Shown here piece by piece: positions 34,317 to 60,414 of a stretch of DNA of 64,000 nucleotides; position 1 is the first letter of the stretch, and every line of letters begins with the position of its first letter. The notes beneath the pieces were generated by a model. The model saw nothing but the letters and a program-made list of their open reading frames with translations. It made no database searches and was not told where the DNA came from. Location of the stretch: the NCBI RefSeq assembly GCF_003334785.1, contig NZ_QOWV01000012.1; one strand, written 5' to 3'. Source of the DNA: Escherichia coli (GTDB lineage: Bacteria; Pseudomonadota; Gammaproteobacteria; Enterobacterales; Enterobacteriaceae). A program made the position numbers and the translations under genes.

Positions 34317-35561
<1,245 letters not shown>

Positions 35562-35640
35562 TAATGGGTGCGGCTTGATGCCCTCACCCCGGCCCTCTCC
35601 CACAGGGAGAGGGTGAAAACATGTTGATAAGGATAAAACA

Positions 35641-36360
35641 ATGGCTACCCCACACATTAATGCAGAAATGGGCGATTTCGCTGACGTAGTTTTGATGCCA
35701 GGCGACCCGCTGCGTGCGAAGTATATTGCTGAAACTTTCCTTGAAGATGCCCGTGAAGTGAACAACGTTCGCGGTATGCTGGGCTTCACCGGTACTTACA
35801 AAGGCCGCAAAATTTCCGTAATGGGTCACGGTATGGGTATCCCGTCCTGCTCCATCTACACCAAAGAACTGATCACCGATTTCGGCGTGAAGAAAATTAT
35901 CCGCGTGGGTTCCTGTGGCGCAGTTCTGCCGCACGTAAAACTGCGCGACGTCGTTATCGGTATGGGTGCCTGCACCGATTCCAAAGTTAACCGTATCCGT
36001 TTTAAAGACCATGACTTTGCCGCTATCGCTGACTTTGACATGGTGCGTAACGCGGTAGACGCGGCTAAAGCACTGGGTGTTGATGCTCGCGTTGGTAACC
36101 TGTTCTCCGCTGACCTGTTCTACTCTCCGGACGGCGAAATGTTCGACGTGATGGAAAAATACGGCATCCTCGGCGTGGAAATGGAAGCGGCTGGTATCTA
36201 CGGCGTCGCTGCAGAATTTGGCGCGAAAGCCCTGACCATCTGCACCGTGTCTGACCACATCCGCACTCACGAGCAGACCACTGCCGCTGAGCGTCAGACC
36301 ACCTTCAACGACATGATCAAAATCGCACTGGAATCCGTTCTGCTGGGCGATAAAGAGTAA
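35641..36360 (+). CDS. deoD: purine nucleoside phosphorylase
   Basis: 239-aa [36 protein letters not shown]...; recognised DeoD. Confidence 0.96.
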
Positions 36361-36392
36361 TTGTGTTTCGCTGAAAGGCGATTGTCGTGTTA

Positions 36393-36424
36393 AGCCGGAG
36401 TGGGAGACTGCTCCGGCTTTTAGT
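36393..36424 (+). terminator. Rho-independent terminator of the deo operon
   Basis: Hairpin AGCCGGAG-tgggagactg-CTCCGGCT followed by TTTTAGT. Confidence 0.8.
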
Positions 36425-36519
36425 ATCTATTCATCAATAGCAACTGATTTATAGATTTACTATTATTTTTCATATAGATAAAAAATAAAATACATTCAAG
36501 TATCTATTCACGAATCTAT

Positions 36520-36783
36520 TCATTTATGTTCAGCCGTCATCCAGGAAGGGCATATCAGCAACTCTGGTGGACAACCATAAATTTCTGCCATTTTGCTTTT
36601 GATGTTTGAGCTAAGCCGTTCCGTCTTTTCGATCTGTTTTAGAGAATTAATCGAGATACCTAACATTTTACTTACTTCAGCAAGCGATAATTTATGCCTG
36701 ATACGCACGGCGGCTAGCCAGGAAATACGCTGGCTGAACATTAAATTGATAATCTCCCGTTCCTGGTTTTCCAGATCGATCAT
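36520..36783 (-). CDS. orphan XRE-family helix-turn-helix protein (87 aa); possibly a truncated remnant of the K-12 yjjJ/hipH locus
   Basis: ORF MIDLENQEREIINLMFSQRISWLAAVRIRHKLSLAEVSKMLGISINSLKQIEKTERLSSNIKSKMAEIYGCPPELLICPSWMTAEHK has the XRE/Cro-type HTH pattern; ATG start 31 nt after lplA stop, same strand; no obvious RBS checked. Confidence 0.55.
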   Translation of the reverse strand: MIDLENQEREIINLMFSQRISWLAAVRIRHKLSLAEVSKMLGISINSLKQIEKTERLSSNIKSKMAEIYGCPPELLICPSWMTAEHK

Positions 36784-36814
36784 ATTTCCTTCCCTGGATA
36801 TTTTAATCAGCGAG

Positions 36815-37831
36815 TTACCTTACCGCCCCCGCTATCCACGTCGACAACTTCCGTAGCTCTTTTTCCTGGTCCGGGAAGTCAACCAACAGCGCTTCGCACT
36901 CTTGTTGCAGCATATCCGCGCGGTACAGGCAGCCTTGCAGTCGCCCGGCGAGGGCTTCCAGCGGCGCGGGGTTGAGGCTGTCGGTAAACACCTGGGCGCG
37001 GGTGATATGGCCTTTTTCAACGTCGAAATGCAGTTCCACGCCGCCCCAGCTAAAGCGTTCATCCAGCAGATGCGAGAATGCCGGAGCCTGACCGAAGTTC
37101 CATTCCCAGCTACTCTGACGGGCAAAGGTTTCGGCGAAGTTTGGCAAGTCTGGCGTTTTGTCCGGGGAGATGATTTCCGCTTCTACACGCTCGCCATAAT
37201 GGGCGAAAAAGGCCTTGGTTATGGCCTCGCAAACCTGCTCATGGGTGATCCCCGGCAGCAGCTCGGTGAGGTTGGTCACGCGGGAACGCACTGAGGTAAT
37301 GCCTTTCGCCGCCAGTTTCTTTTTATCCGGATTGAGATAGTTTGCCAGGCGGCTAAGGTCGGCATTGAGCAGCAAGGTGCCGTGGTGGAAGCCACGATCT
37401 TTGGTTTCGCGATAGGCCGATCCTGAGACTTTGCGGTCGCCTTCGGCGGTTTTCACCACCAGATCGTTACGCCCGGACGCTTCGGCGCTGACGCCAAGCG
37501 CGTTCAGCGCATTGAGCACAATCGACGTGGAGATGGTTTTATCGTACTCCGGCTTGCCAGCCATAAAGGTAAAGCAGGTATTGCCGAGATCGTGGAACAC
37601 CGCGCCGCCACCGCTACTGCGCCGTGCCAGGCGGACGTTATCTTCTTCCATCCGCCGGGTATTACACTCTTTCCACGGGTTCTGCGCGCGACCAATCACT
37701 ACCGTGTCGGCATTGCGCCAGAGAAACAGAACGCGCTGCGTGGCGGGCATCTGGCGAAAAATACACTCCTCCACCGCCAGGTTAAACCACGGGTCGTAAG
37801 AGTCAGAGATGAGCAGGCGTAATGTGGACAT
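36815..37831 (-). CDS. lplA: lipoate-protein ligase A
   Basis: 338-aa [28 protein letters not shown]...; recognised LplA. Confidence 0.96.
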
Positions 37832-60391: not shown

Positions 60392-60414
60392 CATCTATTC
60401 ATTATCTCAATCAG

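Follow-up and report, generated by a model that had tools for sequence, protein, structure and literature searches.

The operator of hipBA in Escherichia coli K-12 is made up of four TATCC-N8-GGATA palindromes. The palindromes of hipBA are bound by HipB dimers, and a second HipA-family toxin kinase, HipH (encoded by hipH, also named yjjJ), has been described as an "orphan" without an antitoxin gene (PMC8262856). How the kinase activity of HipH is controlled was stated to be unknown, and the possibility of a fused cis-acting regulatory domain was raised for it from domain presence alone (PMC8262856). Here we describe an AT-rich block of direct repeats that lies between deoD and lplA in a 64,000-nt stretch of E. 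coli DNA (contig NZ_QOWV01000012.1, hereafter the window). The window is DNA of E. coli ATCC 8739, which it matches at 100% identity. We put at about 80% the probability that this block (36420–36528; 109 nt, 20% guanine plus cytosine (G+C)) is the 5' regulatory region of hipH, left behind after the hipH open reading frame (ORF) was replaced. With strong comparative support, its repeats are most likely a HipH autoregulatory operator, bound by the N-terminal helix-turn-helix (HTH) of HipH, and they look like a previously undescribed DNA site for HipH self-control.

The proposed operator resembles those of hipBA in that multiple cis sites lie across the promoter of a HipA-family kinase toxin, with the HTH protein of the module proposed here as the self-repressor. 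Unlike the hipBA sites, the repeats of the block are direct, keep a strict 12-bp period and reach the start codon. In HipH the HTH is part of the kinase polypeptide, whereas hipBA has a separate XRE-type antitoxin for it; the SQ-x-T-x-SR helix of the HipH HTH is unrelated to HipB, and the cognate protein is absent from the window. A hipBA-type operator was rejected as an identity for the block, in which no TATCC-N8-GGATA palindrome was seen; the adjacent XRE gene follows lplA on the opposite strand and is accompanied by no kinase. As in fused-domain toxin–antitoxin modules, one polypeptide comprises both the toxin and a DNA-binding domain, which could replace autoregulation by an antitoxin; what is proposed here beyond the earlier fused-domain suggestion (PMC8262856) is a specific, family-wide candidate DNA target. 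The K-12 yjjJ promoter is orthologous DNA, and differs from the ATCC 8739 block in that in the latter the gene is gone, the 55-nt centre belongs to another haplotype and the first proximal repeat copy (P1) is mutated. The operators of the winged-helix response regulators PhoB, OmpR and TorR are composed of head-to-tail units of 7–10 bp that overlap the promoter with a period of 10–11 bp. The repeats described here differ from such boxes in their 12-bp period, in being tied to hipH rather than to a regulon, and in the absence of a receiver domain or partner kinase.

A sequence-only reading of the window had pointed out two copies of GTATCTATTCA and a near-copy in this AT-rich block, and the copies proved to be exact in position and enriched over AT-matched shuffles. 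GTATCTATTCA occurs at 36423–36433 and 36500–36510, and GAATCTATTCA at 36512–36522; all three contain the core ATCTATTCA (36425–36433, 36502–36510 and 36514–36522), and a degenerate fourth copy, ATACATTCA, lies in register at 36490–36498, 12 nt ahead of the next. When the whole window was shuffled 100 times with dinucleotides preserved, three matches were never reached. When the block itself was shuffled (mononucleotide or first-order Markov), any 9-mer in three exact copies arose in 0.06–0.1% of shuffles, and an exact direct repeat of at least 12 nt in 0.4–0.8%. The repeats are real, and confirmed to go beyond what base composition explains. The 11-mer GTATCTATTCA does not occur outside the block within the 64-kb window. 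A single extra TCTATTCA is found at 60394–60401, giving four matches in the window against 1.07 expected; this excess is owed wholly to the three block copies, and the outlying copy is consistent with chance.

Several familiar elements were considered for the block and discarded. The best inverted repeat, ATCTATTCATCA-N8-TGATTTATAGAT, which involves the distal copy, was matched or beaten by 26% of shuffles (P ~0.26), and a palindromic operator for the XRE protein was rejected on this basis. A repetitive extragenic palindrome or bacterial interspersed mosaic element (REP/BIME), a G+C-rich palindrome of ~35–40 nt with many genomic copies, was likewise rejected, in agreement with the sequence-only reading: the block is poor in G+C, lacks a significant palindrome and occupies one locus per genome in most E. 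coli. An Rfam scan of 36200–37000 on both strands gave no match at E ≤ 1, which excludes a known structured RNA family. A consensus scan of 36300–36900 returned no plus-strand promoter and no terminator, the deoD hairpin failing the T-run rule of that scan.

The deoD–lplA interval occurs in two principal forms among 5426 complete E. coli genomes. The ATCC 8739-type arrangement (deoD, block, a gene for an 87-amino-acid (aa) HTH protein, lplA) is present in 4069 (75%), and hipH, on the plus strand between deoD and lplA, in 1348 (25%); E. marmotae also carries the XRE-cassette allele. Alignment of the two alleles extends from deoD across the block as far as the hipH ATG (36526–36528), with 79–86% identity overall, and resumes at the lplA stop codon. 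The parts of the spacer that are identical between them are the terminator, the distal copy and the proximal copies P2 and P3. The swap is ORF for ORF, ~1329 nt of hipH against 286 nt (36529–36814), and the final two codons and stop of the 87-aa ORF are read, on the opposite strand, from the last repeat copy and what used to be the start region of hipH. The cassette has no DNA or protein similarity to hipH, which rules out its origin as an inversion or deletion product of that gene. At megablast sensitivity across the 5426 genomes, the hipH coding sequence was found at no second location and in none of the 4078 genomes without the K-12-type allele, and it does not occur in the window. Because hipH DNA is present in no genome beyond the 1348, ATCC 8739 has no HipH, and because hipH is absent, its array would be orphaned.

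In K-12, the spacer begins with AGTATCTATTCA directly after the terminator, followed by 55 nt and then by AATCTATTCA-AGTATCTATTCA-CGAATCTATTCA-TTA-ATG, so that hipH is preceded by one distal copy of ATCTATTCA and by three tandem copies that repeat every 12 bp and stop 3 nt short of the ATG. A search of genome contigs with K-12 HipH returned E. albertii only, in which the order is deoD-hipH-lplA and all four repeat copies are identical. The order in Yersinia mollaretii is deoD-hipH-ytjB-serB. Since E. albertii and Y. mollaretii both have deoD-hipH, the position of hipH 3' of deoD is the older state, and the HTH allele is derived. The number of 12-bp units varies among strains: strain YZLc1-3 (hipH allele, locus L013) has one additional ACGAATCTATTC unit before the hipH ATG, and strain 118UI (HTH allele, locus L007) has lost one unit and carries a frameshifted 87-aa gene.

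Repeats of the same kind precede homologues of HipH. A first set comprised the upstream regions of homologues with 39–70% identity, most of which carry two to four tandem nnATTCA copies with a period of 11–12 nt, running up to the ATG. The homologues from Yersinia, Gallaecimonas and metagenomes have an extra distal ATTCA copy at -96 to -138. In the homologue with 70% identity, three tandem copies precede the ATG and a distal AAATCTATTCA is present; in Y. mollaretii, two distal copies flank the deoD terminator and four tandem copies end 1 nt before the ATG. Gallaecimonas and three metagenomic homologues lie in unrelated contexts, including a PIN/Phd pair, RecQ, a cold-shock gene and an alcohol dehydrogenase. 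One exception (locus L025) has two widely spaced copies only.

A metagenome scan with a HipH alignment provided a second set of 80 further loci. Counting as an array at least two ATTC within 100 nt upstream, and as an SQ helix the pattern [IVLM]SQ[PA]TxSR, we found ATTC arrays upstream of 65 of the 68 distinct loci with this helix. Adjacent copies in these 68 loci are spaced by 12 nt in 99 cases and by 11 nt in 8; chains of three copies occur in 33, of two in 22 and of four or five in 6, and the last copy lies at most 6 nt before the start codon in 46. Across all 87 loci, ATTCA is found 202 times on the coding (plus) strand against 15 occurrences of TGAAT. The block of the window shows the same architecture, with P1 (degenerate), P2 and P3 starting at 36490, 36502 and 36514 and followed by TTT-ATG, and with its distal copy at 36425, within the ~65–140 nt upstream that the architecture calls for. 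Its position is orthologous, in that it follows the deoD terminator and can be aligned to the deoD–hipH spacer of hipH-bearing Escherichia. What is missing is hipH immediately downstream, where the 87-aa XRE gene is found on the opposite strand instead. As a separate observation, K-12 hipH and nearly all of the homologues read (L001 2700–2729; starts of L022–L114) have no recognisable Shine–Dalgarno sequence; the last repeat copy occupies that place and sometimes overlaps the start (ATTCATG).

The repeat differs where the recognition helix of HipH differs. Ten homologues have the helix [IV][ST]R[PA]TL[AGMS]R, and none of them has an ATTC array; seven of the ten instead carry, at the same position, tandem (T)CGTT(T/A)CA with at least two repeats. 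The SQ helix is thus associated with 65 ATTC and no CGTTWC arrays, and the [ST]R helix with no ATTC and seven CGTTWC arrays (Fisher p = 7e-10, not corrected for phylogeny). Rarer pairs are the helix CDRSTVTR with GATGCA, VPPATLMR with GCAAATCA and INKSTLTR with TTCGATGCAT. The loci with altered-helix HipH are L047, L059, L070, L074, L077, L083, L087, L094 and L108; L054 and L063; L082 and L086; and L112. Ten positions are unchanged throughout the N-terminal 100 residues of the first eight homologues, and S25, Q26, S30 and R31 belong to them. The HipH HTH as a whole has weak or faint winged-helix Pfam matches only (HTH_5, MarR).

Published work on K-12 places a predicted promoter and an unassigned repressor site on this element. 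Systematic evolution of ligands by exponential enrichment (SELEX) with RpoD holoenzyme gave a peak in the deoD–yjjJ spacer, where a promoter TTTTCA-18-TCTATT was predicted and H-NS was flagged (PMC3946193). The predicted -10 element, TCTATT, coincides with repeat copy P1. Reg-Seq analysis of the yjjJ promoter revealed two repressor sites, one at -24..+18 ascribed to MarA and one at +30..+45 without an assigned binder (PMC7567609). With the Reg-Seq zero at MG1655 position 4621716, the end of deoD at 4621602 and the hipH start at 4621769, the interval +30..+45 corresponds to TCTATTCACGAATCTA, that is, to copies P2/P3. The two studies report neither the repeat structure, its conservation, nor a binder (PMC3946193, PMC7567609), and no relevant paper, nor any description of the repeats, came up when the literature was searched for the motif string or a HipH operator. 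The HTH of HipH is needed for nucleoid localisation and toxicity, and cyclic di-GMP (c-di-GMP) raises hipH transcription via the promoter region by an unidentified route (PMC11452175).

The layout of the array, its conservation, its covariation with the HipH helix and the published repressor-like effect of P2/P3 mutations are observations; binding and repression by HipH are the proposed reading of them. In the mechanism that we propose, several HipH molecules would bind head to tail on two to five, mostly three, proximal copies, which would cover the -10 element, the transcription start and the short leader to the start codon. HipH would also bind the distal copy, an auxiliary site upstream of the -35 element. 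Once bound, it would repress its own transcription, as in the usual autoregulation of type II toxin–antitoxin systems, but via a toxin-fused HTH acting on direct repeats. Because the length of the 55-nt centre is fixed while the intervening sequence differs strongly among haplotypes, a constraint on the distal–proximal spacing is suggested, possibly reflecting cooperative binding or looping. The HipH ligand c-di-GMP (PMC11452175) could relieve the repression, although this link is speculation.

The proposed operator shows constraint in genomes that retain hipH. In a hipH-present set of six E. coli and E. albertii, 1 of 36 motif sites is variable compared with 23 of 73 other block sites (p = 0.0004). 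The HTH-allele set comprised 15 sequences (14 in the constraint test), including E. marmotae and another Escherichia species; here 7 of 36 motif sites and 6 of 73 other block sites are variable (p = 0.12). Scattered substitutions are seen in P2 and the distal copy of HTH-allele genomes, and E. coli and E. marmotae share ~95% identity over the full block. With one copy decayed and motif sites no better kept than their surroundings, the ATCC 8739 array is probably a drifting orphan relic, and as a feature of the window the block is most likely non-functional.

Several observations weigh against parts of this interpretation. Chromatin immunoprecipitation with exonuclease treatment (ChIP-exo) of myc-tagged YjjJ in K-12 gave zero binding sites, its own promoter included, and the authors suggested that YjjJ has no predicted HTH domain (PMC8464067). 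The Reg-Seq start site was computationally predicted and the mutagenised window ends at +45, which makes the extent of the +30..+45 site provisional, and its nature may be DNA or RNA (PMC7567609). The CGTTWCA group may be one clade, although the alternative pairings of helix and repeat number four in total. Start codons in the metagenomic loci were set by rule, which makes the distances to them approximate. The relic status is drawn from a small sample (15 sequences, 13 variable sites), and, given the conservation between E. coli and E. marmotae, the block may retain some residual function. The repeats are nonetheless assigned to HipH itself, despite the negative ChIP-exo result, mainly because the repeat switches together with the HipH helix, which would be unexpected for a host factor.

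An unlikely alternative is that the array has been co-opted in strains without hipH, either as a site bound by the XRE protein or as an unrepressed promoter whose antisense RNA would cover the XRE gene and the 3' end of lplA. In the latter variant, TTTTCA-18-TACATT, with a predicted plus-strand start near 36503, would fire constitutively into the convergent lplA–XRE unit. Such a role would fit the position of the block, which adjoins the XRE gene and provides its stop codon from the last repeat copy, as well as the retention of the TTTTCA-18-TACATT arrangement in the window, the inverted ATAGAT of the HTH-allele centre, which was not seen in the K-12 centre, and the ~95% identity to E. marmotae. 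The XRE gene itself is under purifying selection, with a ratio of nonsynonymous to synonymous substitution rates (dN/dS) of 0.15–0.38; it has a good ribosome-binding site and starts 31 nt after lplA, and judged by its sequence it is a real gene. Its product has an HTH_3 match at 1e-6 in Pfam, generic XRE/HTH_3 matches only (Pfam, NCBIfam, PADLOC, PHROGs) and no relative in the PDB, and its homologues were found in Escherichia only, always at the deoD–lplA locus.

Against co-option, the motif is older than the XRE gene and follows the HipH helix, not the XRE protein, which is of another HTH class than HipH and lacks the SQ-x-T-x-SR helix. Motif sites are no more conserved than other sites in the XRE-allele genomes, one copy has decayed, and whole units have been lost in some strains. 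The block also lies downstream of the XRE gene, away from the XRE promoter. The only palindrome of the block, the one with an inverted copy, is not significant, and nothing ties the XRE protein to the repeats. The sequence-only reading had considered a protein-binding array with the 87-aa HTH protein as a possible binder; the array of sites is supported, whereas that binder is not, given that the motif tracks the HipH helix and predates the ORF. Were co-option true, the control region of a toxin gene would have been recycled to regulate a lipoate ligase and a new gene.

Somewhat less probable still is binding of the repeats not by HipH but by a conserved host factor, which could be a nucleoid protein (H-NS, for example) or a global or two-component regulator with affinity for direct repeats. 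The flagging of H-NS in the K-12 spacer (PMC3946193), the assignment of the neighbouring Reg-Seq site to MarA, the 20% G+C of the block and the ChIP-exo experiment without YjjJ binding are all compatible with such a factor. It would not account for the presence of the motif beside hipH in unrelated contexts and distant taxa, nor for the switching of the motif together with the HipH recognition helix, and H-NS is not known to have a sequence-specific 9-mer of this kind. The dominant period of 12 nt also contrasts with the 10–11 nt typical of OmpR/PhoB-type sites. The tor boxes (CTGTTCATAT) and cre tags (TTCAC-N6-TTCAC) may loosely resemble the motif. None of the sites of TorR, CreB, ArgR, OxyR, NarL or DnaA would fit the 12-bp direct-repeat geometry or explain the covariation with the helix.

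It is very unlikely that the repeats act as RNA, whether in translation control within the hipH 5' untranslated region (UTR), in the place of the missing Shine–Dalgarno sequence, or as an element of the deo 3' UTR. The last copies do abut the start codon, no Shine–Dalgarno sequence was seen in the K-12 and homologue upstream regions read, and Reg-Seq measures mRNA, such that a repressor-like signal could reflect RNA stability. The distal copy, however, lies upstream of the promoter, next to the deoD terminator, which it follows directly or even flanks. The motif also changes in step with a helix that binds DNA, and no Rfam family matches. The sequence-only suggestion of a 3' UTR element of the deo transcript fails for similar reasons, since the block follows the deoD terminator and the corresponding K-12 block holds the yjjJ promoter (PMC3946193, PMC7567609).

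A scar, in which the direct repeats would stem from a deletion or replacement by target-site duplication or breakpoint microhomology, is already refuted and carries next to no weight: although the replacement junction falls at the right edge of the block and the copy number of the 12-bp unit varies among strains, the same repeats, with one more copy intact, also stand before hipH where that gene is intact, in E. coli and E. albertii, in Yersinia and in dozens of metagenomic loci, and neither junction is flanked by duplicated sequence. The sequence-only reading was right to the extent that a junction is present: the replacement has its left junction at 36526–36528, the right edge of the block. 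The repeats, however, did not arise from the replacement. The comparison that it had proposed, with yjjJ-intact genomes and AT-matched shuffles, removes the scar, as the block is present in those genomes, and keeps the array, as the repeat count exceeds that of the shuffles.

The individual parts of the locus can be followed along the window, in the order deoB (34338–35561, plus strand), deoD (35641–36360, plus strand), hairpin, AT-rich block, 87-aa ORF (minus strand), lplA (minus strand), ytjB and serB. The deoD intrinsic terminator on the plus strand (AAGCCGGAG...CTCCGGCTT, a 9-nt perfect inverted repeat) forms a hairpin at 36392–36419 with a short T run to 36421; it is the left boundary of the block and is nearly identical in both alleles and in E. 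albertii. The distal copy AGTATCTATTCA (36422–36433, plus strand; core from 36425) is at the same place after the terminator in K-12 and E. albertii. It is followed by the 55-nt centre (36434–36488, plus strand), a putative vestigial hipH core-promoter region with a -35-like TTTTCA at 36467–36472 and two inverted ATAGAT hexamers at 36451–36456 and 36474–36479. The length of the centre is identical across the K-12, E. albertii and HTH-allele haplotypes, with an identity between them of ~50–60% as estimated by eye. Within each haplotype the centre (counterparts in L001 and L016) is nearly invariant, and it diverges much faster than its flanks.

The proximal copies lie on the plus strand to the right of the centre. 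P1 (36490–36498) contains TACATT (36491–36496) at the place of the K-12 -10 element TCTATT; its sequence is ATCTATTCA in K-12, in E. albertii and, among HTH-allele genomes, in L019 alone, the others having ATCCATTCA or ATACATTCA. The K-12 counterpart of P2 (36502–36510) is inside the Reg-Seq repressor site at +30..+45. P3 (36514–36522) is invariant in 15 of 15 HTH-allele and 7 of 7 hipH-allele sequences, and its final TCA is the complement of the stop codon TGA of the 87-aa ORF. The vestigial hipH start ATG (36526–36528, plus strand) marks the left replacement junction, past which the K-12 and E. albertii hipH alleles are no longer similar, and is read on the minus strand as a His codon of the 87-aa ORF. 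The 286-nt replacement cassette (36529–36814, minus strand) consists of the body of the 87-aa XRE/HTH_3 gene and the 31-nt spacer to lplA. The 87-aa ORF itself (36520–36783, minus strand) has its stop codon within P3 and a Shine–Dalgarno-like AAGGA before its ATG. The stop codon of lplA (36815–37831, minus strand) is the right junction of the replacement.

Some further observations concern the surroundings of the block. The last ~50 nt of lplA (36815–36865) are clearly more diverged from K-12 than the remainder of the gene (~96–100% identical); the C-terminal residues AGAVR are kept despite this divergence, and the diverged haplotype reaches slightly past the replaced ORF. The deoB–deoD spacer (35551–35650) is 60–66% identical to K-12 compared with 96–100% in its flanks, and in ATCC 8739 it contains a G+C-rich palindromic segment, ccctcaccccggccctctcccacagggagagggtgaaaa, which resembles an intergenic repeat element that is absent or different in K-12. 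The deoD–lplA interval attracts insertion sequences (IS): upstream of hipH in strain TB354 (L003, 3266–3724), IS200C separates the deoD terminator from the distal copy, and IS1 splits the 87-aa gene in strain 2018-10-1CC (hit H12). In strain WB61 (hit H68, NZ_CP020025.1 673760–673826), only 67 nt of hipH match, beneath a gene annotated "transcriptional regulator", which may represent a third allele or a truncated hipH retaining only the HTH part. Two Logan loci, L020 and L021 (SRR13921544, SRR18740011), were discarded as assemblies with a bisulfite-like conversion, in which nearly every G is replaced by A; the proteins that they are predicted to encode (P0033, "72% identity") entered the protein collection as artefacts.

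For the HipH family, the repeats provide a concrete, family-wide candidate operator, with which HipH autoregulation and its possible relief by c-di-GMP become testable using a defined DNA probe. The altered-helix HipH subfamilies are a ready-made set for specificity-swap experiments, and if HipH binds the repeats, the Reg-Seq repressor site at +30..+45 would gain a binder. For E. coli, the deoD–lplA interval is a clean two-allele locus, occupied by hipH in 25% and by an Escherichia-specific XRE gene in 75% of genomes, and the orphan operator constitutes a natural experiment on the rate at which unused binding sites decay.

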